A DNA stretch of 19,041 nucleotides from Nanobdellota archaeon (GTDB lineage: Archaea; Nanobdellota; Nanobdellia; Nanobdellales; Nanobdellaceae), in the NCBI GenBank assembly GCA_020697515.1, contig JAIXNB010000025.1, forward strand, positions 1-19,041, written 5' to 3'. Positions 3,315 to 17,158 of this stretch are shown here, piece after piece; position 1 is the stretch's first letter; each line of letters begins with the position of its first letter. The translations under genes were made by a program, and so were the position numbers. The notes below the pieces were generated by a model. It had not been told where the DNA came from. It saw only the letters and a list, made by a program, of their open reading frames with translations, and did not search any database.

Positions 3315-5516
3315 ATGGATCTTACTAAGAAAGTCTTGGAACTCATGAATAAACCAGAGCAGATAAGAAACATAGGGATTGTAGCACACATACACCATGG
3401 GAAAACAACACTAACAGATAATTTACTGGCAGGAGCAGGTATGCTCGCTGCAGACTTAGCTGGAGAGGCCATGTTTACATGGTGGCACGAAACAGAGAAA
3501 GAGAGAGAGATGACTGTGTATGGTGCAGCAGTGTCTATGGTTCATAACTACGAGAGTAGAGACTATTTAGTTAATTTAGTGGATACTCCAGGTCACGTTG
3601 AATTCTCAGGACAAGTTACAAGAGCCTGTAGAGCTATAGATGGTGCGATAGTAGTTGTAGATTTTGTAGATGGAGTAATGCCACAAACAGAATCAGTTTT
3701 AAGGACTGCTTTGAGAGAGTATGTTAAGCCTGTTTTATTCATCAATAAAACAGATAGAGCCATAACAGAACTGAAACTTCCTCCTGAGAAGATTATGGAA
3801 AGAATAGGAAAAATAGTGATAGAAGTTAATAAACTAATTGAGAAATATTCTCCACCAGAATTCAAAGATAAATGGAAGGTAAATGTAATGGACGGTTCTG
3901 TTGCATTCGGATCTGCTAAGTACCACTGGGCTCTGTCCGTACCTTACATGAAGAAATATGGTGTTTCTTTCAAAGACGTAATAAAAGTATATAAAGAAGC
4001 GGGAGAAGATAGGGAAAAATTAAAGGAGCTAGTAAGAAAGATTGCGCCAGTACATAAAGTTGTTTTAGATATGGTTGTGAGACATCTACCCTCTCCGAAA
4101 GAAGCACAGAAATATAGAATTAAGCAGATATGGAAAGGAGATTTGGAATCTCCATTAGGACAAGCAATGGTGAATTTAGATCCAAATGGTCCTGTAATGA
4201 TAAATGTTACAAATGTTATAATTGATAAGGTATCAAAGCAGGAGATCGCAACTGCAAGAATATTCTCCGGAACTCTTAAAAGAGGAGATGAGGTCTACCT
4301 GATGCGTGCTGGAAGAAAAGTGAAAGTACAACAGTTAGCAGTATGGAAGGGTATTCAAAGATTGCCTGTAGAAGAGGTAAAAGCAGGAAATATCATTGCT
4401 TTAGTTGGTATAAAAGGTCTGTATCCTGGTGAAACAATAATATCTACAAATCTGGATCCAAAGAGTGTGGAGCCATTTGAAGAGATAAGACATTGGTTAG
4501 AACCAGTAGTTACTAAATCCTTTGAACCGCAAAACCCTAATGACTTACCCAAATTAATAGAAGTATTAAAGTTAATAGAAAAAGAGGACCCTACAATAAA
4601 AGTAGAAGTGAATCAGGAAACTGGAGAGATTCTTGTATCTGGTTTGGGAGACCTGCATCTACAAATAATTGAATATAGAGTAGCTAATGATTTTGGAATA
4701 AAAATAAAAACTGGACAACCGATAGTAGTTTATAGAGAGTCCGTTGAGAAGACTTCTGAAGTAGTAGAAGGTAAATCTCCAAACAAACACAATAAATTCT
4801 ATGTTATTGTAGAACCCCTGGATCCAAAGTTCTTTAAGAAGCTTAGGGAGGCTATAAGAAATGGCGAAATTCCAGAAGGTAGAATTAAGAAAGATGATAT
4901 CTGGAAGAAACTTGTAGATCTCGGTATGGATAAAGAGGAAGCTAGGAGAGTTCAAATGGTCCATCGAGATAGCATATTTATAGATATGACTAGAGGTATT
5001 GTGTATCTACCAGAGGTCATAGAGTATGTTTTAGAAGGTTTCAAACAAGTTATGGATCAAGGACCAATAGCATGGGAGCCTTGTATAATGCTAAAAGTAA
5101 AACTAGTTGATGCTGTATTGCATGAGGATCCTATACATAGGGGTCCTGCTCAAGTAATACCTGCTGTTAAAGAGGCTATAAAGCAAGCAATATTACAAAA
5201 TCCAGTATTATACGAACCTGTACAGATAGTAAGAATTGATGTTCCACCGGATTACATAGGAGATGTTTCTTCGCTAGTTTCAGCCAGGAGAGGACAAATA
5301 TTGGATATGCAAATAGATGAAGAGAGAGGGGTGATAAAAGCAAAAATCCCAGTAGCAAATATGTTTGGATTTACAGATGAATTAAGAAGTGTTACTAACG
5401 GAAGAGGAGTATGGTTTTTAGAGGATCAAGTATTTGAAAAAGTTCCAAAAGATTTGTATGATCAGGTAGTTAGGTCTATAAGACAGAGAAAGGGTATACC
5501 AGAGGGTGTTCATTAA
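3315..5516 (+). CDS. fusA: Translation elongation factor 2 (aEF-2)
   Basis: GTPase motifs are AHIHHGKTT, DTPGHVEF and NKTDR. The archaeal EF-2 blocks PSPKEAQKYRI and GKSPNKHNKFYV are present. The diphthamide-site block HEDPIHRGPAQVIPA is present. Confidence 0.97.
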   Translation: MDLTKKVLELMNKPEQIRNIGIVAHIHHGKTTLTDNLLAGAGMLAADLAGEAMFTWWHETEKEREMTVYGAAVSMVHNYESRDYLVNLVDTPGHVEFSGQVTRACRAIDGAIVVVDFVDGVMPQTESVLRTALREYVKPVLFINKTDRAITELKLPPEKIMERIGKIVIEVNKLIEKYSPPEFKDKWKVNVMDGSVAFGSAKYHWALSVPYMKKYGVSFKDVIKVYKEAGEDREKLKELVRKIAPVHKVVLDMVVRHLPSPKEAQKYRIKQIWKGDLESPLGQAMVNLDPNGPVMINVTNVIIDKVSKQEIATARIFSGTLKRGDEVYLMRAGRKVKVQQLAVWKGIQRLPVEEVKAGNIIALVGIKGLYPGETIISTNLDPKSVEPFEEIRHWLEPVVTKSFEPQNPNDLPKLIEVLKLIEKEDPTIKVEVNQETGEILVSGLGDLHLQIIEYRVANDFGIKIKTGQPIVVYRESVEKTSEVVEGKSPNKHNKFYVIVEPLDPKFFKKLREAIRNGEIPEGRIKKDDIWKKLVDLGMDKEEARRVQMVHRDSIFIDMTRGIVYLPEVIEYVLEGFKQVMDQGPIAWEPCIMLKVKLVDAVLHEDPIHRGPAQVIPAVKEAIKQAILQNPVLYEPVQIVRIDVPPDYIGDVSSLVSARRGQILDMQIDEERGVIKAKIPVANMFGFTDELRSVTNGRGVWFLEDQVFEKVPKDLYDQVVRSIRQRKGIPEGVH

Positions 5517-8450: not shown

Positions 8451-9710
8451 ATGGGTTACAAAACACTTTTCATTATTTTGGATGGTGTTGGTGATCACAT
8501 CATTAAAACCTTTCATGGTAAAACACCACTAGAAGCTGCGAAAAAACCCAACATAGATAAGCTTTGTCGTTTTGCAGAATGTGGTGTCGTGTCGCCTGTA
8601 GACATTGGTGTCGTTCCTGGAAGCGACACTGGGCATCTAGGCCTTTTTGGATATGATCCCTATAGATATTATCCCGGTAGGGGGGTTTTTGAGGCGCTTG
8701 GACTGAATATCAAGTTAGAGGAAGGAGATATAGCGTTTAGAGTCAACTTTGGAACTGTTGATAATAATTTTTTAATTATTGATAGAAGAGCCCAGAGAAA
8801 TCCAGAAGGAATAGATTCAATAATTAAAGAATTTAATAGTAAAGTTGGTGAGATTGAGAGCAAATACGGTGTTAAGATCATTCTAAAACATGGAGTAGAA
8901 CATAGAGGTGTGCTTGTAATAAAAGGGAAAAATTTATCCAATAAGATATCAGATATTGATGTACATAAAGTAGGAATTAAAGCAAAAGAAGTCAGCCCAT
9001 TAAATGATACAAAAAGTGCTAGGATAACTGCAGAGATTGTGAATAAAATAATAAGTTTATTTTATGATGTTTCTAAAAATCATGTAGCGAATGACAGAAG
9101 AAAAGAAAAAGGATTATTGCCAGTTAATTATTTGCTACTGCGTGGAGTATCAATGTATAAACCACTTAAAGATCAAGATACATTCTACAGTAGATATCAA
9201 CTTAAACCGGTATTTATTGCTGGCGCCCCAATGTATTTAGGTGTTGCAAAATATGTTGGAATGGATACTATAAAACCTGCTGGTGCAACTGGGACTGTAA
9301 ATACCTCTTTAGTATCCAAAGCTGAATCCGCTATATCGGCTAGACAAAAATACGACATAATTTTTGTACATATAAAGGCAACTGATACATTATCACATGA
9401 TAAAAACCCAAAAGGTAAGAAAAAATTTATAGAGCTTATAGATCAACGATTCTTCAGCAGAATAAAGGATGAATTTGATATAATTGTTTTAACTAGTGAC
9501 CATACGACGTCCTCCATTTTGGGAGAACATACAGCAGACCCTGTACCAATAATGATATATTCTGTAGAAGATATAATTCATAGAAAAGATTCTGTAAAAA
9601 ATTTTGCAGAAAGAAAATGTTATAAAGGAATTCTAGGACATTTAAAAGGCATACATATCATACGGCTTATTCTGAATAAAATAGGAAAGGGGATCAAATA
9701 TGGTACGTAA
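8451..9710 (+). CDS. apgM: 2,3-bisphosphoglycerate-independent phosphoglycerate mutase, archaeal type
   Basis: The N-terminal LFIILDGVGD, then PGSDTGHLGLFGYDP, and the C-terminal LTSDHTT...HTADPVP are typical of the archaeal ApgM family. Confidence 0.92.
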   Translation: MGYKTLFIILDGVGDHIIKTFHGKTPLEAAKKPNIDKLCRFAECGVVSPVDIGVVPGSDTGHLGLFGYDPYRYYPGRGVFEALGLNIKLEEGDIAFRVNFGTVDNNFLIIDRRAQRNPEGIDSIIKEFNSKVGEIESKYGVKIILKHGVEHRGVLVIKGKNLSNKISDIDVHKVGIKAKEVSPLNDTKSARITAEIVNKIISLFYDVSKNHVANDRRKEKGLLPVNYLLLRGVSMYKPLKDQDTFYSRYQLKPVFIAGAPMYLGVAKYVGMDTIKPAGATGTVNTSLVSKAESAISARQKYDIIFVHIKATDTLSHDKNPKGKKKFIELIDQRFFSRIKDEFDIIVLTSDHTTSSILGEHTADPVPIMIYSVEDIIHRKDSVKNFAERKCYKGILGHLKGIHIIRLILNKIGKGIKYGT

Positions 9711-10398
9711 TAACAATTCTTTAGATTATATCATTGCAAATTATGCGTATGGATTCCTAAAAAAAGAATTTGTAGAAACATTGCCTATAACAATCTCTGC
9801 ACAGAATCTAAAAGAAGAACAAGCTGTAGAAAAAGCAAGATCTTTAGTTATTGATACCCTAACAAATCTTTATTATCATCTCGAAGAGAAGTATCCAATA
9901 ACCAGAGAGAATTTAGAGTTCACTCCATTAGAACCTGAATTGATTATAGGGGGAAAAAGTAAAGTTACACCGGATGGGTATGACGTAGCTGTTGCAACAT
10001 ATAAAAAGCAGTTACGTGGCGATATCAAACTAAAATTCTATATAAGTTACGAACACAAGAATGGAAAAGCACGCAAGAGACCGTATGCACAACTACTAAC
10101 ATACGTTCTTATATCCACATATAAAATGAGAAAATATTTTAAAAAAAATGTAAAACCAATCTTTATTGGCTTTTTAATTAATAATGGGGGAAGGGTCATA
10201 AATGGTTTTATTGCGTCAAAATATGTAAGTAAAGAGAAAATTGAGTTATTTGTATATTGGCCAATGAGATCAAAATGTTTTAATTACTCATTAGACTACA
10301 AAATTCTGGCTGAAGGGATAAGAAACATAACTAAAGAAAATAAAAGTCTAAGGAAAGGATTAAAAAATGAGTTATACTACCTCTATGATTTAATATAA
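9700..10398 (+). CDS. Hypothetical 232-aa protein with a PD-(D/E)xK / QxxxY-like motif set (possible RecB/Cas4-superfamily nuclease fold)
   Basis: The ATG overlaps the end of apgM by 11 nt. The motifs are TPDGYD (D92/D95), DIK (108-110) and QLLTY (131-135), with spacing typical of RecB-family nuclease domains. There is no Cys cluster. The functional call is inference only. Confidence 0.6.
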   Translation: MVRNNNSLDYIIANYAYGFLKKEFVETLPITISAQNLKEEQAVEKARSLVIDTLTNLYYHLEEKYPITRENLEFTPLEPELIIGGKSKVTPDGYDVAVATYKKQLRGDIKLKFYISYEHKNGKARKRPYAQLLTYVLISTYKMRKYFKKNVKPIFIGFLINNGGRVINGFIASKYVSKEKIELFVYWPMRSKCFNYSLDYKILAEGIRNITKENKSLRKGLKNELYYLYDLI

Positions 10399-10423: not shown

Positions 10424-11140
10424 TTACTGTGTTATTCTTCTTTCTTTATTAATCCCTTCCTCTTCCAACAATTCTTGGAATTTCTTAGCAAGCTCTGGAT
10501 CTATTTCTTCTAATTCCTCTACCCTAACTTCATAAGGTTCCTTAATCTTTACTTCGTCGGGTAACCTTATATCTCCGGGTAATATCCTAACTTGCACTCC
10601 AATTACTCCCTGAGGGAGTATTGCTATATCTATAGCTTTTCTCACCCCTTCTTTATTAACTTCTCCTGACTTTTTCATATTTCCAGCAGAGAACCTTATT
10701 TTTGTAGCTCTTTCCCCAATGATTTTACCCGCCAATCTTATCTCAACACCCCTAGCTCCCGCTTCCATAACCTGCTGTATAATCCTAGATACAACCCTTC
10801 TAGCAGCTCTAGATCCTAGTCTTTCTATTCTTGTAGCGATTAACTCTGCAACGATATTTGCATCTAATAATGGATTATCAACAGGTATGGCTTCTATTTG
10901 TGGGTTTTTAAGTCCAAATTTGGTTTTTAATATTTTTGCAAGTTCTTGAGCTCTTTCATTAGCCTTTCCAAGAACAAATCTAGGCCTAGCACAATGGATA
11001 ATTATTTTTTCTCCTAATGGTGTATCATAATACTCTACTTTACTAATTAGTTTACCCTTTAAGTATTTCTTCACAAATAAGTGGATTAATGTTTCTTTTT
11101 TCCTCCAGTTAACTATCTTGCGGATAGCTTCTGAGACCAT
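10424..11140 (-). CDS. rps3: 30S ribosomal protein S3 (uS3)
   Basis: The KH-domain and uS3 blocks are RPRFVLGKANERAQEL, RAARRVVSRIIQQVMEAGARGVEIRLAGKI and GVIGVQVRI. Confidence 0.95.
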   Translation of the reverse strand: MVSEAIRKIVNWRKKETLIHLFVKKYLKGKLISKVEYYDTPLGEKIIIHCARPRFVLGKANERAQELAKILKTKFGLKNPQIEAIPVDNPLLDANIVAELIATRIERLGSRAARRVVSRIIQQVMEAGARGVEIRLAGKIIGERATKIRFSAGNMKKSGEVNKEGVRKAIDIAILPQGVIGVQVRILPGDIRLPDEVKIKEPYEVRVEELEEIDPELAKKFQELLEEEGINKERRITQ

Positions 11141-11655
11141 TCTTTTAATACATCTCCAACCAATCTTTTTAAAGCCTTTCGGGAGTACCTCTTTTCTGGA
11201 TCATATTGTTCTATCTCCATTGCTACTATTTCTACATGAGTTCTCTTTCTCCTTACTGTCCTCATCCTTATTCTCCCCCATACAGTAGTTCCTTTATGCA
11301 CTGCAGCGTGAATAATTATTAATTTATTAGTATTTAATCCTAAATACTGCGCATTTTTTTCTAAAGAATTAAGAAGCCTGAGAAAGTATTTGGCAACTTT
11401 CTCTGGATACCTACCAAATTTTATTGGGCCGTTTAAATCTTTTCTATGAGGTATATCTCTACAATATCTAAAGAATGGGATAGATCTCCTTTTGGTTATT
11501 ACGTCTTCCAGGTATTTTTTGGCTTTATTTAGTGGAAGATACTTAATCGCTCTAGCAACATGAACAGAGTTTTTTCTGGAGATTGGCAAATTCCACGCTC
11601 TTACAACTGCAATCTTCTTTGCAGATCTAAGCTCCTCCATGAGTTTAGCATCCAT
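11113..11655 (-). CDS. rpl22: 50S ribosomal protein L22 (uL22)
   Basis: The blocks are ISRKNSVHVARAIKYL, GRYPEKVAKYFLRLLNSLEKNAQYLGL and THVEIV. The C-terminal tail overlaps the uS3 start by 28 nt. Confidence 0.92.
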   Translation of the reverse strand: MDAKLMEELRSAKKIAVVRAWNLPISRKNSVHVARAIKYLPLNKAKKYLEDVITKRRSIPFFRYCRDIPHRKDLNGPIKFGRYPEKVAKYFLRLLNSLEKNAQYLGLNTNKLIIIHAAVHKGTTVWGRIRMRTVRRKRTHVEIVAMEIEQYDPEKRYSRKALKRLVGDVLKEWSQKLSAR

Positions 11656-11667
11656 TCTAAACGAACA

Positions 11668-11675
11668 TTATAAAT
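11668..11675 (+). promoter_or_regulatory. TATA box (TTATAAAT) for the 11701..13737 operon
   Basis: Its centre is 29.5 nt upstream of ATG 11701. Confidence 0.4.
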
Positions 11676-11677
11676 AC

Positions 11678-11685
11678 TTATAAAC
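11678..11685 (-). promoter_or_regulatory. TATA box (GTTTATAA on the minus strand) for uL22-uS3
   Basis: Its centre is 26.5 nt upstream of the uL22 ATG at 11655. Confidence 0.5.
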
Positions 11686-11700
11686 CTAAGTTATTATGAA

Positions 11701-12099
11701 ATGAAGCCAATAGAAATCCTAGTTGTCGTAATGTATTTGTCGTTTGTCTTACTACTTACAACATCACATTTTAACAACATAATTTCAGAAAGGAAAGCAA
11801 TAGTAAATTATTTAGAGAGATTCTATATAGGAAGGTTTGTTATAAAAACCCTAACAGAAAATGTTACTTTTACTTCAGGAATATGTAATTTATCTGAAAA
11901 CTTTACAAAAATATTTGATGAAGATACATATTTATCATTTTTAAGTAACAATAACATTAAAATCCCAATAAAAATCTCAGCCCAATATCTAAATGGGACA
12001 GTAATCGGTAATATAGGTGGGACTGGTAAAAATATAATAGAATTTAGGAGAGTTTGTAATTACAGAGGGCAAATGGTAATAGTAAAGGTATTAGTATGA
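11701..12099 (+). CDS. Small N-terminally membrane-anchored protein rich in N-glycosylation sequons (132 aa)
   Basis: There is a single N-terminal hydrophobic helix (ILVVVMYLSFVLLLTT). The sequons are NVT, NLS, NFT and NGT. It is the first gene of an ATGA-coupled operon. Confidence 0.6.
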   Translation: MKPIEILVVVMYLSFVLLLTTSHFNNIISERKAIVNYLERFYIGRFVIKTLTENVTFTSGICNLSENFTKIFDEDTYLSFLSNNNIKIPIKISAQYLNGTVIGNIGGTGKNIIEFRRVCNYRGQMVIVKVLV

Positions 12100-12425
12100 A
12101 CCCAATAATTGTACTAGAAATAATTATAAGTATTTTAGCAGTGGGGTATATGGTTAGCTTAGATGTTCCTATAAAGTTTGATACTAGGTATTATTTATTT
12201 GAAGACTTATATGCATCATTAATTACATTAAACTATCAAAATTATTCTAGTAAGAAAGTTTGTAACATTATAGAAAATGTAATTCCAAGAAATTATAAGT
12301 ATGTTGTATTTGAAAACGGTAATATAATTTGTGGAGAGAGTATAAAAGATTATTATTGGGGGATATCTCATTTCATAGAGTATAACAATACAATATACAA
12401 CATAACAATATTGATAACGAGATGA
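12096..12425 (+). CDS. Small N-terminally membrane-anchored protein rich in sequons (109 aa)
   Basis: It shares an ATGA overlap with the upstream ORF. The N-terminal hydrophobic helix is PIIVLEIIISILAVGYMV. The sequons are NYS, NNT and NIT. Confidence 0.6.
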   Translation: MNPIIVLEIIISILAVGYMVSLDVPIKFDTRYYLFEDLYASLITLNYQNYSSKKVCNIIENVIPRNYKYVVFENGNIICGESIKDYYWGISHFIEYNNTIYNITILITR

Positions 12426-12712
12426 GGTCTCAATTTGTGATACTTCTAACAGTCTTCATCCTATTTTCATGGTATAATGTATACAAAGCTCTAAATATTG
12501 AATATTCTGTATATGAGTCTAATATTGAAAAATACATTGCATATTCATTCTGGCACGAGATATATACAACCGATAATATAACTCTTAGAATACTTATTAA
12601 CGATACTTATTATGCATACTGTAAGGAAATTGGATTAAAATGTATATTTAATGGTACGCATGTTATAGTAAGATCCCCAACAAAATTATATGTTTTAAGA
12701 ATTAAACAATAA
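12422..12712 (+). CDS. Small N-terminally membrane-anchored protein rich in sequons (96 aa)
   Basis: It shares an ATGA overlap with the upstream ORF. The N-terminal hydrophobic helix is FVILLTVFILFSW. The sequons are NIT, NDT and NGT. Confidence 0.6.
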   Translation: MRSQFVILLTVFILFSWYNVYKALNIEYSVYESNIEKYIAYSFWHEIYTTDNITLRILINDTYYAYCKEIGLKCIFNGTHVIVRSPTKLYVLRIKQ

Positions 12713-12714
12713 AA

Positions 12715-13737
12715 TTGGTAGTAATCGCTGGAATAGATGTAGGAACAACTACCGCGATAGCACTATTGGATGAAAACAAAAGAATAGTAGACAGTATCAG
12801 TAAGAAGAATTTCTCTGAAAGAGAGATAATTAGTTATATATCAAATAAAACGCATTTGGTGTTACTTTCAACAGATAAATCTAAGATTCCTGCTAGAATT
12901 AAAAAAATAGCTGCTAGGCTAAATTTAGGTGTTTTTGCTCCTAAAAAAGACTTACCGCTAGAGTACAAGAAAAGATTTTATGCTAATAGAAAACTCAGAG
13001 AAATTCTTAAAAACATTCATGAGTTTGATGCATATATAGCGGCATATTATGCTATAGATCAAGTAAGAGATATAATAATAAAGACTAAAAAAGTAACTAA
13101 CGACATAAACAAACAGGCAACCATCCTTAGGAAATACTTTAGGAATCTCAAAAAAGAGCCAGTAACTATTTATAGAGAACTTTTCGAAAACAAAAAGAGA
13201 AACACTATAGAAAAGAACAAGGATATTAACAATAATAGAGAAATTAAAAGGAGAATTAAAGAAGAAGGTGGGCGAGCAAAATCTATTAAAATAGTAGTCA
13301 AAAGAGTATCTAAAGAAGATAGAATCATCAAGGATAGGTTATCTGAACTAACAAAACTACTTTCAAGATATATCACAGCTTTAGATATTATTTCTGAGAG
13401 TATATTAAAGAAAAAGACAGAAGAATTAATACCAAAAATATCTTATGTTGAAAAGAAAAAAATTAGCATAAAGAGAGTATTTTTGGATGATAGTAACTAT
13501 ATAGATAGAGTTTACAAATATAGAGAAATTTTTATATTGAGGGATAAGTTCGAACAAATTAAAGAAAAAATGTATTCAAAAAAAGTATATTTAGTGGATG
13601 AATATATAGATGTTATAACGTTTATAATACCAAAAAAATACGAAGAAATTGCTTTAAATGATAATAAAGAAAATATATCTGAAGTAAAAAGAAAAATAAA
13701 AGAAATAATAAGGAAATATCGATATTGTAAAATGTAA
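12715..13737 (+). CDS. DUF460/COG2433-like protein: RNase H-fold N-terminal domain plus a K/E/R-rich, coiled-coil-like region
   Basis: The TTG start lies 2 nt after the upstream stop. The N-terminal VIAGIDVGTTTAIALLDEN matches the first-strand acidic motif of RuvC/YqgF-like DUF460 proteins. The central region of residues ~150-230 is highly charged. Confidence 0.65.
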   Translation: MVVIAGIDVGTTTAIALLDENKRIVDSISKKNFSEREIISYISNKTHLVLLSTDKSKIPARIKKIAARLNLGVFAPKKDLPLEYKKRFYANRKLREILKNIHEFDAYIAAYYAIDQVRDIIIKTKKVTNDINKQATILRKYFRNLKKEPVTIYRELFENKKRNTIEKNKDINNNREIKRRIKEEGGRAKSIKIVVKRVSKEDRIIKDRLSELTKLLSRYITALDIISESILKKKTEELIPKISYVEKKKISIKRVFLDDSNYIDRVYKYREIFILRDKFEQIKEKMYSKKVYLVDEYIDVITFIIPKKYEEIALNDNKENISEVKRKIKEIIRKYRYCKM

Positions 13738-13846
13738 ACTTGTTTCTACATTAAAATAAAAGTATGGAATCCAGTTGTCTGTTATATTTAGTTTTATTAT
13801 ATCATAATTAGCAAGTAAGCAAAATAAACATATTAAGTATTAGACT

Positions 13847-13870
13847 ACCCCCTCCCCTTTCCGAGTGGAA
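13847..13870 (-). repeat. ORB-like origin recognition element, left copy (inverted)
   Basis: The plus strand reads ACCCCCTCCCCTTTCCGAGTGGAA. Its reverse complement is TTCCACTCGGAAAGGGGAGGGGGT. Confidence 0.75.
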
Positions 13871-13989
13871 GATGCAAAGTAGAGGAGAATATAGAATGTA
13901 AGGTTAGTAATGTATAAAATATTATGTATTACTATTTACTACTAGTAAATAGTAATAAAAGTTCGGAATATATACACCTGTGAAATAAT
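13871..13989. other. Candidate duplex unwinding element of oriC, including a 31-bp perfect palindrome at 13927..13957
   Basis: This is the 119-bp segment between the inverted ORB-like copies, about 25% G+C by hand count. The palindrome is TATTACTATTTACTA-C-TAGTAAATAGTAATA. Confidence 0.65.
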
Positions 13990-14014
13990 TTCCACTCGGA
14001 AGGGGGAGGGTGGT
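13990..14014 (+). repeat. ORB-like origin recognition element, right copy
   Basis: It reads TTCCACTCGGAAGGGGGAGGGTGGT. The 12-nt dyad core is identical to the left copy, and the G-string tail differs at 2 positions. Confidence 0.75.
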
Positions 14015-14151
14015 CCCGTAAAATATATATATCTTATAAATTCTGTGATTATCTACATGTTAGTAAAAATTTGAAATAACTTTTATATGTTGTGACTAGA
14101 GTAACATAAAATAGTTTATTAAAGTTACGTAAATTTTATAAATGAACTATC

Positions 14152-14159
14152 TTTATAAT
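14152..14159 (+). promoter_or_regulatory. TATA box (TTTATAAT) for orc1/cdc6
   Basis: Its centre is 25.5 nt upstream of ATG 14181. This supports ATG 14181 over the TTG at 14172 as the start. Confidence 0.5.
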
Positions 14160-14180
14160 AATATTCTCTAATTGTCATAC

Positions 14181-15413
14181 ATGCCCGAACACAAAATTAC
14201 AGAGTTTTTCAATATCTATATAGAATCATTTTTAAAAAGAAAAACAATAATCAAAAACCCTCTTTATCTATCAGATATCTGGATACCTGAACAAATAAAA
14301 CATAGAGACCGTGAGTTATCACTAATATTCCAATATATTGCACCTATAATAAAAAGATTTAAAGCCCCGAATCTTTTATTGTATGGTCCAACTGGAACTG
14401 GAAAAACATTATCTGTAAAATATTTGGGAAAACAACTTGATAATCTCTCCACAATCAAAAAACTACTTATTAAACATGTATATGTAAATTGCAGAATATA
14501 TGGGAATAAAAGCAGTTCTCTCTACTATATTCTAAGAGATATTTTATCTCAGTTAACTAAAAAAGTTATTAAAGATGGTATAAAAACTACTGATCTTATA
14601 AACGAGCTGTTTTCATATATTCAGGAAAAAGATATTTCTGTACTCATAATCTTTGATGAAATAGATTCATTAATAAAAAATACAAAGGAGGATGATTTTT
14701 TATATCTAATTACTAGAGATGATCATGTTTTAGACAGGAATAGACTGTCTTTTATAGGAATATCAAATACTTTAGATTATCTAAAAGATCTAGATGCACG
14801 CACATTGTCCTCATTAAATGCTATTAAGATAGGATTTAAACCTTATAATGCTTTACAGCTTTACGACATCCTTAAGGAGAGAGCATGCTTGGCATTTGAA
14901 GAAGGGGTAGTATCTGATGATATATTAAGGTATATAGCCGCGTGGGTTGCTCGAGAGTCTGGTGATGCTCGTAAAGCAATTAGCATCCTTAGACTTGCTG
15001 GGAATCTTGCAGACGCTGAGAGCAGTGATAGGGTAACAATGAAACATGTAGAGAGAGCTATTGAAGGGTACGATTTGGATTCTTTTATTTCAGAAGTAGA
15101 GACTTTATCAACACATCACAAGCTTATTGTATTATCAATTTTAGAAGAACAAATAAAATTAGACGATCATTCATTTGTATCTTTTACAGAAATATACGAG
15201 AGATATACACAATTATGTAGTGAATATGGTTTGAGACCTTTGAGTAAAGATAGTATTGGTAAAAAAATAAAACAGCTTGAAACTTTTTTGGGAGACTATA
15301 TGGAAGTATATATCAAAAGCTTTGGAAAGTATGGTAGAAAAAAAGTTGTTAGAATAAATCTAGATAAGGAAAAGGCCTATAAGGTGATAAAATTCCTAAG
15401 AGATAACATATGA
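14181..15413 (+). CDS. cdc6: Orc1/Cdc6 replication initiator
   Basis: Walker A is GPTGTGKT, Walker B is LIIFDEID, sensor 2 is GDARKAISILRLAG, and there is a C-terminal winged-helix region. The ORF track starts at TTG 14172. I prefer ATG 14181 (MPEHK...) on promoter spacing. Confidence 0.94.
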   Translation: MPEHKITEFFNIYIESFLKRKTIIKNPLYLSDIWIPEQIKHRDRELSLIFQYIAPIIKRFKAPNLLLYGPTGTGKTLSVKYLGKQLDNLSTIKKLLIKHVYVNCRIYGNKSSSLYYILRDILSQLTKKVIKDGIKTTDLINELFSYIQEKDISVLIIFDEIDSLIKNTKEDDFLYLITRDDHVLDRNRLSFIGISNTLDYLKDLDARTLSSLNAIKIGFKPYNALQLYDILKERACLAFEEGVVSDDILRYIAAWVARESGDARKAISILRLAGNLADAESSDRVTMKHVERAIEGYDLDSFISEVETLSTHHKLIVLSILEEQIKLDDHSFVSFTEIYERYTQLCSEYGLRPLSKDSIGKKIKQLETFLGDYMEVYIKSFGKYGRKKVVRINLDKEKAYKVIKFLRDNI

Positions 15414-17158
15414 ATGGTAAAATACTTAAAGAGTTGTGGAAAAGAGGATTTATAGTATCTGTAGATGCTATAGAGTTTTTAAAACAGATTGAATCTCAAC
15501 TAGATTTAGATACTATACTATCTAAGCTTCAAGTTGAGAATATAACAATCATTACAAAGCAAACTCTCGAAAAGATCATAAAGATAGATAAAAATCTGTC
15601 TTATAGAGATTCAACAGGCGTACAGAAAGATAAATCACAAAAAGATAACAACTTTGAAAATATTATTCATAACAAAACTAGCAAAAATAGTATCAGCAAA
15701 AATGCTAATGGATCTACTATACTAAAGTTCATACAACAGACAACAAAAATCGAAACTAAAAATAAAATTAAGATTGAAGAGAAAATATGTATCGAAATAG
15801 AAAAAAATACTAGTAATGATATAGAATCTCCTAGGGTTTATTCAAAACTAACTCAAAGTAGCTCATCAAGAGTACTTATTTGCTCTCAGAAAAAAAGATT
15901 CGTTGGAGATGAGTTTCAACTTTATGTAGATATTCTAAAAAGCTATGAGTTATCTAAACATGAAATTTCGGTAAATACTTGGGTGTCCTATTATCGGGCC
16001 CGCTTAAATAAGATCAAACATTTATTAAAAAATCACTCTGAGTTGTCTTTATTTATTTCTTTTGATCAGTTGAAAAGAGATATAGAAGAAGTATCTGTCG
16101 TAGGATTGGTTAGAGATAAAAGAATAACTTCTAAAGGTATGGTTATCACTTTGGAAGATAGTAAGGGTCTTTTAAAAGTATTCATCTCCCAAGATTTGGA
16201 AAATTTTGAAGAAGTACAGTCTGTTCCTTTAGATACTGTAGTTGGTATTAGAGGGAAATATCTGAGTTACAAAAAACTTCTAATTGCAGATTCATTTTTC
16301 TATCCGGATATCCCATTTAAGAAAGTAAAGAAAGGAGAAGATGATGTTTGGATAGCTTTTACCGGAGACTTTCAGGTTGGTAATAAAAATTTCCTTAAGA
16401 GGCCATTTGAACGTTTTATAAGATGGCTTAAGGGCGAGTACGGCTCCGAAAAAGAAAGAACTCTGGCTAGGAAGGTTGGATACCTAGTACTTACTGGGGA
16501 CCTAATAGATGGTGTGGGTATCTACCCCAACCAAGAAAAAGAACTAGAAATAGTTACCGCAGAGGAGCAGTATGCAGCTTTAGAAAGGTACTTCTTAGAG
16601 ATACCGGAATCTATACAAGTTATTACTATTCCGGGAAATCATGATGTAGTAAGATTAGCAGAACCTCAACCACCAATACCTAAAGATTTCTTTCCAGAAA
16701 CTTACGAATTAGAAAACTTTTTTTATGTATCTAATCCAGCATACGTTAAGATCCATCGATTGCTCGATATACTAATTTATCATGGATATTCTATGGATTG
16801 GTTTGTTTCTGAAGTCTCATGGATACGGGAGAGAGGAGGTTATGATAAACCAGAAGAGATAATGAAGTTTATGCTCACAATCAGACACCTCGCGCCAACT
16901 CACGGATGTAATCCCTATGTCCCATATCCTGGCCAGGATCCGCTTGTGATAGATCCTGTACCAGATATCTTTGTTACAGGTCACATTCACCGTACAGCAT
17001 ACGCTGTATACAAAGGAGTCGAGTTAATCAATGCATCATGTTTCCAAGGTATCACACAATATCAGCTAGAGCTCGGTCACAAGCCAGATCCGGGTAAAGT
17101 TGTTTTAAGGAATATTAAAACTGGTGAAGTCAAAATCCTTAATTTTCTATCATCATAA
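15410..17158 (+). CDS. dp1: DNA polymerase II (PolD) small subunit DP1
   Basis: It shares an ATGA overlap with cdc6. The N-terminal is ELWKRGFIVSVDAIEFL. The phosphoesterase motifs are GDLIDGVGIYPNQ, GNHD, YHGYS and TGHIHR, but motif I reads GDFQVG rather than the DxH form. An N/K/S-rich low-complexity linker covers about residues 58-160. Confidence 0.93.
   Translation: MNGKILKELWKRGFIVSVDAIEFLKQIESQLDLDTILSKLQVENITIITKQTLEKIIKIDKNLSYRDSTGVQKDKSQKDNNFENIIHNKTSKNSISKNANGSTILKFIQQTTKIETKNKIKIEEKICIEIEKNTSNDIESPRVYSKLTQSSSSRVLICSQKKRFVGDEFQLYVDILKSYELSKHEISVNTWVSYYRARLNKIKHLLKNHSELSLFISFDQLKRDIEEVSVVGLVRDKRITSKGMVITLEDSKGLLKVFISQDLENFEEVQSVPLDTVVGIRGKYLSYKKLLIADSFFYPDIPFKKVKKGEDDVWIAFTGDFQVGNKNFLKRPFERFIRWLKGEYGSEKERTLARKVGYLVLTGDLIDGVGIYPNQEKELEIVTAEEQYAALERYFLEIPESIQVITIPGNHDVVRLAEPQPPIPKDFFPETYELENFFYVSNPAYVKIHRLLDILIYHGYSMDWFVSEVSWIRERGGYDKPEEIMKFMLTIRHLAPTHGCNPYVPYPGQDPLVIDPVPDIFVTGHIHRTAYAVYKGVELINASCFQGITQYQLELGHKPDPGKVVLRNIKTGEVKILNFLSS

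Follow-up and report, generated by a model that had tools for sequence, protein, structure and literature searches.

A four-gene locus in a Nanobdellota genome

Here we describe a locus of four tightly packed genes in the genome of a Nanobdellota archaeon (family Nanobdellaceae; assembly GCA_020697515.1). The stretch of DNA that we analyzed, referred to here as the window, comprises 19,041 nucleotides (nt) and corresponds to positions 1 to 19,041 of contig JAIXNB010000025.1. The four open reading frames (ORFs), referred to here as genes A to D, span positions 11701-13737 and are all encoded on the forward strand. Gene A (11701-12099) has an ATG start and encodes 132 amino acids (aa), and it is followed by gene B (12096-12425; 109 aa) and gene C (12422-12712; 96 aa). 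The products of these three genes, which we refer to together as the trio, are bitopic membrane proteins. Gene D (12715-13737; 340 aa) has a TTG start and encodes a protein of the DUF460/COG2433 family (PF04312). The junctions A/B, B/C, and C/D measure -4, -4, and +2 nt, respectively, as both A and B overlap the following gene by an ATGA sequence and the TTG codon of D begins 2 nt past the stop codon of C. A preliminary description of this locus, made from the letters of the window alone, had given the same coordinates, ORF lengths, ATGA overlaps, TTG start, and 2-nt gap, and we found all of them to be exact. Since the junctions leave no space for a promoter other than one inside C, A, B, C, and D probably share one transcript in this genome.

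Our data indicate that all four ORFs are real genes under purifying selection. Ratios of nonsynonymous to synonymous substitution rates (dN/dS), calculated by the Nei-Gojobori method for the window copies against their orthologues at two related loci (L005 and L007), were 0.14 for A, 0.11-0.17 for B, 0.13-0.19 for C, and 0.16-0.18 for D, so that all four genes fall between 0.11 and 0.19 at synonymous divergences (dS) of 0.5-1.3. The preliminary description had named conservation of the small ORFs among relatives as a check, and both these ratios and the presence of orthologues down to approximately 30% identity show that they are conserved. That they are chance ORFs in AT-rich DNA, as their short length, biased composition, and lack of database matches might suggest, is refuted by the dN/dS ratios, by the orthologues, by the conservation of cysteines, N-x-S/T sequons, and gene order, and by the high confidence of the structure model of A (see below), and we consider this explanation practically impossible.

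We found that the trio is restricted to a narrow group of archaea. An exhaustive HMMER search of 1.84 billion representative proteins with the profile of A recovered eight family representatives (121-136 aa, 29-42% identity) and nothing credible beyond them. This exhaustive search was run for A, and distant orthologues of B and C were traced by synteny. A word-seeded protein search recovered close relatives only, namely two clusters for A, four for C (61-99% identity), and seven for D; remoter orthologues of C, found by synteny, are 33-38% identical. A scan of contigs with the alignment of D recovered three loci, and a scan of metagenomes with a four-sequence alignment of A recovered one. Orthologues of B are present at L005, L007, L008, L010, L011, L013/L014, L015, and L016. 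Hidden Markov models of A, B, and C, compared with six-frame translations of L001-L011, revealed no extra or hidden copy at L002, L003, L004, or L006. Wherever we followed the order of the distant family members (L010, L011, L013/L014, L015, and L016), A precedes B- and C-type genes, and in seven of eight lineages, with identities as low as 29-35%, both A|B and B|C keep the ATGA overlap. A member of the A family, YN1_3100, is encoded by the cultivated Nanobdellota strain YN1, and the next two genes are of the B and C types. The database record of B names it a hypothetical protein of Candidatus Nanopusillus sp., and D is 99% identical to an NCBI protein entered under Candidatus Nanopusillus.

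The three small proteins share no similarity with one another past the membrane helix, as assessed by BLASTP and hhalign. Scans of all family members of A, B, and C against Pfam, NCBIfam, PADLOC, and PHROGs gave nothing consistent, and profile searches of the sequences in the Protein Data Bank (PDB) with each of the four protein families gave chance matches only. Thus, A, B, and C are three mutually unrelated orphan families that are seen only in Nanopusillus/Nanobdellales-type nanoarchaea. The combination of the four genes had not been recognized as a described system, in agreement with our finding no description of it in the literature or in profile libraries. The families of the trio are new, and DUF460 is already known as a family without a function.

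Genes A, B, and C encode predicted extracytoplasmic glycoproteins

Each of the small proteins had been described as carrying a single N-terminal hydrophobic helix and three to four sequons, and our data support both features. Hydropathy analysis (Kyte-Doolittle) identified one N-terminal hydrophobic stretch in each of A, B, and C, the best 19-residue window of which scores 1.7-2.5 and starts at residues 4-6. Together the three proteins of the window contain 10 sequons (3-4 each), whereas sequence shuffles that keep the composition predict 3.7 (P = 0.002). When whole families are counted, the trio has 3.2-3.6 sequons per 100 aa, D has 0.51, and a control group of 14 cytoplasmic proteins encoded at the same loci has 0.58, so that sequons are approximately 6-fold denser in the trio than in cytoplasmic proteins. 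Furthermore, this family-wide density is approximately three times the composition-shuffle expectation (P < 0.001). Individual sequons occupy fixed alignment columns (in 8 of 10 members for A, 7 of 8 for B, and 9 of 9, at two columns, for C), and every one is found past the helix, on its C-terminal side.

Conserved residues were found at the N-termini and in the heads. The A protein begins with MKPIE and its family follows the pattern M(Lx)K-x-x-E, in which the residue after the lysine is P, T, S, V, L, or F. Invariant in the A family are the motifs RFxxGR, LTE, GIC-NL[ST], and RxC, as well as C62 and C119, and 8 of the 10 members have a sequon at N63 (CNLS/T). The B protein begins with MNPIIVLEIII, and the glutamate at position 8, within the hydrophobic helix, is retained in 8/8 orthologues, among them that of L010, which begins MKA|NF. 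B also has a cysteine pair (C56/C79) in six of eight orthologues and conserved sequons at N49 and N97. All nine orthologues of C share the N-terminal motif M-[KR]-[SAN]-Q-[FY], which reads MRSQF in the window and KA|Q at L011. The C family also has two invariant cysteines, C67 and C74, and its sequons at N60 and N77 are found in all nine orthologues. A and B have in common a conserved glutamate that lies inside the membrane helix or where it begins.

The sequons, together with the distribution of charges and the cysteine pairs, point to an N-in/C-out topology with glycosylated extracytoplasmic heads, and the sequons are the strongest signal for this predicted topology. A, B, and C are therefore probably anchored N-in/C-out, with heads that are outside the cell and probably N-glycosylated. 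Only 1-4 residues of each protein are predicted to be cytoplasmic, which leaves almost no surface for a cytoplasmic partner. Since the strict order of the three genes and their coupled translation persist over deep divergence, the trio appears to be a stoichiometric complex. Overall, we consider it likely that the trio forms an extracytoplasmic glycoprotein complex.

Gene D encodes a DUF460 protein with an RNase H-like domain

Gene D was proposed to encode a DUF460 protein with an RNase H fold and a remainder rich in lysine, glutamate, and arginine, and this identification proved correct. The protein begins with MVVIAGIDVGTTTAIALLD and matches PF04312 over residues 3-110 (E 4.6e-22, 78.6 bits, cutoff 28). 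Lysine, arginine, and glutamate make up 36-37% of the rest of D, and the net charge of the whole protein is +34. In an alignment of seven homologues D54 (TDK), H102, E103, and D105 are invariant, as is D8 (GIDVG) wherever the N-terminus is included. The positions of the acidic residues agree with the elements of our model and with the description of the family, which places them in the first and fourth strands and in the C-terminal helix (PMC3985635).

An AlphaFold2 model of D is confident over residues 1-130 (predicted local distance difference test score, pLDDT, of 80-94) and poor beyond. It comprises one RNase H-like domain (residues 1 to approximately 125) followed by basic helices and a poorly modelled C-terminal part. 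Foldseek matched the model to the YqgF domain of Spt6/Tex, Deinococcus radiodurans RuvC, the N-domains of ROK kinases, and retroviral integrases, with E-values from 4e-3; all of these best matches have RNase H-like folds. The match to D. radiodurans RuvC had an E-value of 0.03 and a target-normalised TM score of 0.54, and a RuvC-like PHROG model matched D with an E-value of 0.02. A profile search with the D family found no significant match among the solved RuvC sequences of the PDB. DUF460 has been grouped with RuvC, YqgF, and Tex among the Holliday-junction-resolvase-like RNase H families and is found in Archaea only (PMC3985635). Our data indicate that D is a genuine DUF460/COG2433 protein with one RuvC/YqgF-like RNase H domain and a very basic helical tail.

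The preliminary description had also suggested that D is ASKHA-like, that is, related to the acetate and sugar kinase/Hsp70/actin superfamily, and here our data disagree. Only the N-terminal subdomain of the ROK kinases aligns to D, over approximately 100 columns, and no ASKHA family of Pfam matches D. Since D has one RNase H-like domain and ASKHA proteins have two, D is not an ASKHA ATPase; its acidic and histidine residues are of the RuvC type, and its net charge is the +34 noted above. Such a charge suits the binding of nucleic acid.

The start of the DUF460 gene varies among its relatives. It is TTG in the lineage of the window and ATG at L013. Where DUF460 follows rps14 (L002, 5989-6010; L016, 12816-12840), the GIDPG N-terminus, with its predicted catalytic aspartate, is in frame and there is no ATG, GTG, or TTG between the upstream stop codon and GIDPG. 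At L006 (2086-2230) the only in-frame canonical start is a GTG at 2098, approximately 40 codons upstream of the DUF460 N-terminus. Gene callers gave N-terminally truncated DUF460 proteins (e.g., P0006, 288 aa) because there is no suitable canonical start at these sites. This suggests either initiation at ATT or ATA in rps14-linked DUF460 genes or their systematic mis-annotation.

The trio and gene D are separable units

Comparison of related loci resolved the region into two blocks. The first, apgM | rps3(-) rpl22(-) | A B C, is intact in the window and at L005, L010, L011, L013/L014, L015, and L016. The second, D | spacer | orc1/cdc6 | PolD small subunit (DP1), is found in the window and at L011, L013/L014, and L002. 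The two blocks abut only in the lineages of the window type, and the order A-B-C-D is retained at L005, L007, L008, L011, and L013/L014.

The four proteins had been proposed to form a single surface or membrane module in which D, with its RNase H or ASKHA-like fold, is the partner of the trio inside the cell; such an arrangement would be analogous to PilM with PilN/PilO. A module would explain why the four genes run in one direction with junctions of -4, -4, and +2 nt and why they have stayed together at the loci just named, where the identity of D falls to 44% (L011). The synteny of other relatives, which the preliminary description had itself named as a test, contradicts it. At L016 the trio (3940-4942) and a homologue of D (12834-13811; 37% identity, E 3.6e-45) are on the same contig and are separated by 7.9 kb and 11 genes; this homologue sits behind rps8-rps14. 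At L015, which is the complete genome of strain YN1, a 200-nt gap past C is followed by a gene for a 900-aa helical cytoplasmic protein, and D was not found within the 8 kb examined on either side of the trio. At L010, the sequence that begins 3 nt past the stop codon of C reads, by eye, as a tRNA 3' end encoded on the opposite strand; the contig stops at this point, which is why ARAGORN gave no call. D in turn occurs without an adjacent trio at L002, L006, L001/L003, and L004. At L002 and L006 it follows rps8-rps14 with no trio nearby, and it is followed by cdc6 and PolD DP1 at L002; L006 ends after D. In Aenigmatarchaeota (L001/L003; L003, 3848-6927) D overlaps the end of a gene pair for a Hef helicase and an XPF nuclease (ERCC4 plus helix-hairpin-helix), and in another archaeon a short D comes after eIF5A.

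Two further properties argue against a module. First, D has the single RNase H-like domain, RuvC-type residues, and charge described above, and the 1-4 cytoplasmic residues of the trio proteins offer D no tail such as that which PilN offers PilM. Second, tight packing is unspecific in this genome. We found that 8 of the 14 same-strand junctions in the window measure 9 nt or less, including some between genes without an evident functional link; spacing is therefore weak evidence for shared function here. Overall, a four-protein module with D as partner appears improbable. The proposal of a surface or membrane module is retained in part, as the conserved pilin-like trio with its predicted extracytoplasmic heads, and it is lost for D.

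Our data indicate that the four-gene set is a lineage-specific juxtaposition and not a system. Because the trio and D are apart in relatives, because the lasting neighbours of D are replication and repair genes, and because the trio has hardly any cytoplasmic surface, we consider it very likely that the two are functionally independent. We reasoned that D most likely acts in replication or repair, where it would bind or cleave nucleic acid that is branched or structured. Several observations count against separating the two units in this way. The adjacency of C and D persists at L011 (42-44% identity) and at L013/L014, where A is approximately 29% identical to the window copy. In five sequences D has a weak TTG start 2-6 nt past the stop codon of C, and a TTG directly after this stop would fit translational coupling and co-expression, which would also speak for a module. 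Finally, it is entirely from gene neighbourhood that we infer the replication or repair role of D.

We also considered a defence system in which small transmembrane effectors are paired with a nuclease. This candidate was dropped, as PADLOC matched none of the genes and the linkage is not conserved.

A predicted pilin-like build of the trio

An AlphaFold2 model of A, based on an alignment of nine sequences, has a pLDDT of 94.1 and a predicted template modelling score (pTM) of 0.77. It consists of a continuous 52-residue helix (residues 2-53) that runs from the transmembrane segment into a stalk, followed by two short helices and an antiparallel sheet of four strands. Among the trio the structure model covers A alone, and the comparison with pilins was made on the order of secondary-structure elements. 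In this respect the predicted structure of A fits type IV pilins and pseudopilins.

These features would be accounted for by the following scheme. The ATGA overlaps would couple the translation of A, B, and C and lead to their roughly equal synthesis. Each protein would insert N-in/C-out, with 1-4 residues inside the cell, and would have a lollipop build made of a hydrophobic helix, an amphipathic stalk helix, and a small, cysteine-bearing, N-glycosylated alpha/beta head outside. Contacts between the N-terminal helices would most likely join the three proteins into a heterotrimer of 1:1:1 stoichiometry on the external side of the membrane. This heterotrimer may act as a set of minor pilins or pseudopilins that primes or caps a filament, which would be built by one of the nanoarchaeal type IV pilus-like machineries that are encoded elsewhere.

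Several results weigh against a pilin assignment. Foldseek returned no pilin among the PDB matches listed for the model of A; the best match was the C-terminal alpha/beta domain of uS3 (E 0.09), and periplasmic domains of CusS and LapD were also matched. Models of pilins and class III signal peptides (e.g., PF07790, PF04021, and N_methyl) matched none of approximately 21 family members at E-values up to 10, and the sole related match was that of Flp1_like to one A member (E 0.15, 12 bits, cutoff 33.5). The N-termini in the window (MKPIE, MNPII, and MRSQF) lack the [KR][GA] prepilin site, as the preliminary description had noted, and a small residue at -1 is absent from A and B. Among relatives, C at L011 reads KA|Q and B at L010 reads MKA|NF, and these starts count, together with the conserved glutamate of A and B, in favour of a pilin-like build. 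Neither a pilus ATPase (PilB/FlaI), nor a TadC/FlaJ platform protein, nor a prepilin peptidase is encoded in the 19-kb window or in the examined flanks of L011, L013, L015, and L016, and the window contains no pilus or secretion genes. The lack of nearby machinery does not exclude a pilin family because archaeal genomes often carry stand-alone pilin genes (PMC4858521). Nanoarchaeota are reported to have two type IV pilus systems plus an archaellum (PMC6142677), and for one clade of nanoarchaeal pilus ATPases no cognate pilins could be identified (PMC4858521).

One side observation concerns both DUF460 and pilins. At L004 (7949-10709), a locus of an uncultured archaeon, two small proteins with pilin-like N-termini (MKGQQQILTPILVVLIM and MAVGQFRIVEETLFFMIG) are encoded some 1.5 kb downstream of a DUF460 gene that is itself short (169 aa), followed by a 578-aa protein that we read as a candidate FlaI/PilB-type ATPase. 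A convergent RNase Z-like gene lies between, and the proximity to DUF460 is probably coincidental.

The strongest competing explanation is that the trio proteins are plain signal-anchored surface glycoproteins, for example of the envelope, S-layer-associated, or engaged in host contact, that never enter a filament and in which the helix serves as anchor and stalk. The missing matches to class III signal peptides and pilins, the distance from any pilus machinery, and the resemblance of the A head to generic two-layer alpha/beta domains are what such proteins would lead one to expect. Furthermore, Nanoarchaeota encode many hypothetical proteins that are predicted to be external and have a single N-terminal transmembrane helix (PMC6142677). 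It is hard to see why plain anchors would keep the helix glutamate of A and B, or why the [KR]-x-Q-[FY] start of C would be invariant, and the strict gene order with coupled translation points to a stoichiometric complex. The 52-residue helix followed by a four-stranded sheet in A also matches the build of a pilin. We consider plain surface glycoproteins rather unlikely, at appreciably less than an even chance.

Bitopic platform proteins resembling PilN, PilO, GspL, or GspM, which would scaffold an envelope machine, share with the trio a small size, a transmembrane segment, a stalk helix and an alpha/beta head, as well as consecutive overlapping genes. The periplasmic core of PilO and GspM is a ferredoxin-like (alpha-beta-beta)x2 repeat, and the head of A does not follow this order but alpha-alpha-beta4. 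A cytoplasmic tail is absent (1-4 residues), Pfam models of PilN, PilO, and GspM do not match, and the dense sequons suit exposed surface heads. A role as platform proteins is therefore very improbable.

We hold only tentatively, and at somewhat less than an even chance, that the trio is pilin- or pseudopilin-like in its assembly; its membership in the pilins is not established. Taken as a whole, our interpretation is that a pilin-like trio of extracytoplasmic glycoproteins and a separate replication or repair nuclease, D, have been packed together in this lineage, and we consider the chances for and against this composite to be balanced. A more specific proposal can be made for the trio. An attachment organelle is present in YN1 and Nanobdella and its protein components are unknown (PMC11420986), and YN1, which bears this organelle, encodes the trio (YN1_3100 and the two following genes). 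We hypothesized that the trio is the missing, highly divergent pilin or pseudopilin set of Nanopusillus/Nanobdella-type nanoarchaea and forms a heterotrimeric priming or tip complex of a filament, possibly the approximately 6.6-nm filament of this host-bridging organelle. We regard this as speculative and unlikely.

Flanking genes and a probable replication origin

Upstream of gene A, rpl22 (11113-11655) and rps3 (10424-11140), both identified by Pfam, are encoded on the reverse strand and form a block (10424-11655) that is divergent from A. The 45-nt region between rpl22 and A (11656-11700) contains back-to-back TATA-like boxes (ATTATAAATACTTATAAAC), as read from the sequence, and is probably a bidirectional promoter. 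If so, the transcript of gene A would be leaderless or near-leaderless. We found that the divergent L22(-)|A(+) layout is kept at every related locus for which the upstream flank is known. Gene order in these genomes is otherwise known to be scrambled. A shared bidirectional promoter may be the reason that the trio stays beside rpl22-rps3. On the forward strand, upstream of this block, a scan with Pfam and NCBIfam identified apgM, followed by a 232-aa ORF. This ORF (9700-10398, +) shares 11 nt with the end of apgM, has no Pfam match, and contains four sequons (shuffle P about 0.05).

Downstream of D, an AT-rich spacer of 434 nt (13738-14171) leads to orc1/cdc6 (14172-15413, +) and the gene for PolD DP1 (15410-17158, +), which overlaps orc1/cdc6 by 4 nt; both were identified by Pfam and NCBIfam. 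Within the spacer, a repeat search revealed an inverted pair of 21-nt sequences (CCCTCCCCTTTCCGAGTGGAA / TTCCACTCGGAAGGGGGAGGG; 95% complementary) at 13850-14010, directly upstream of orc1/cdc6 and PolD DP1. The pair flanks 119 nt of AT-rich DNA with a perfect 15-nt palindrome (13927-13957). At L013 an equivalent pair (GAAGTGGAAA / TTTCCACTTC), with arms 122 nt apart, is found at the corresponding place upstream of cdc6; we looked for such a pair at L011 and L002 and did not find it. Archaeal origins have a characteristic architecture of origin recognition boxes (ORBs). By this architecture and by its position upstream of orc1/cdc6, the region 13850-14010 is a probable replication origin with ORB-like arms. 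Further along at L013 (8810-10486), past cdc6, PolD DP1, and a gene for a DHH phosphoesterase, there is a gene for a PIN-T2SSE-KH domain ATPase.

Significance and comparison with known systems

Nanoarchaeota/Nanobdellota live attached to host archaea, and the proteins of their contact structures are unknown (PMC11420986). The trio provides a defined candidate set of surface proteins in these host-dependent archaea, and it is also present in the cultivated strain YN1. The position of DUF460 beside oriC-cdc6-PolD, and behind Hef-XPF in Aenigmatarchaeota, gives a lead to what this widespread archaeal family may do, and points toward a RuvC-like nuclease of replication or repair. The literature that we found on DUF460 makes no mention of either the origin/cdc6/PolD or the Hef-XPF neighbourhood, and we know of no DUF460 member of known function. 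Our data also suggest that in compact genomes such as these even a 2-nt spacing of genes need not mean shared function. No new mechanism is demonstrated here, and the yield of this analysis is a candidate surface complex and a neighbourhood lead for DUF460.

Among known systems we compared the trio with the minor pilins and pseudopilins of type IV filaments, namely bacterial GspH/I/J/K and FimU/PilVWX and archaeal MMP0233/0236/0237 of Methanococcus maripaludis. Shared with them are a very short N-terminal tail, a helix of approximately 50 residues that is hydrophobic and then forms a stalk, and a small beta-sheet head, as judged from the model of A. As in minor pilin sets, different subunits are encoded by consecutive, translationally coupled genes, and the trio has disulfide-type cysteine pairs and a heavy potential for glycosylation. 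An acidic residue is present in the N-terminal helix of two trio members and not of the third. This recalls E5, which is present in most pseudopilins and absent from the tip subunit GspK. Unlike in pilins, the glutamate of the trio lies at a variable distance from the N-terminus. The trio further differs from pilins in having no sequence or profile match, no [KR][GA] site in the window copies, no pilin match by Foldseek, and no machinery nearby.

The trio also resembles the 'hypothetical external' proteins of Nanoarchaeota, which likewise have one N-terminal transmembrane helix and predicted surface exposure (PMC6142677). That class is defined by topology, has raised non-synonymous diversity, and was proposed to have a role in interaction with the host (Jarett et al. 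2018, PMC6142677). The trio differs from it in being a defined set of three families under purifying selection and in a fixed gene order.

D resembles the RuvC/YqgF/Tex clade in its RNase H-like fold and conserved acidic residues. The average length of DUF460 proteins suggests that they have additional domains beyond the RNase H-like one (PMC3985635), and D departs from this pattern in that it has 340 aa and a short basic helical tail. The parallel between this locus and PilM-PilN-PilO, in which an RNase H-fold cytoplasmic protein is likewise encoded beside small bitopic proteins in overlapping genes, is superficial. Unlike PilM, D has nuclease-type residues and no second ASKHA subdomain. Furthermore, the gene order is reversed relative to PilM-PilN-PilO, the linkage is not conserved, and the trio has no cytoplasmic tail.

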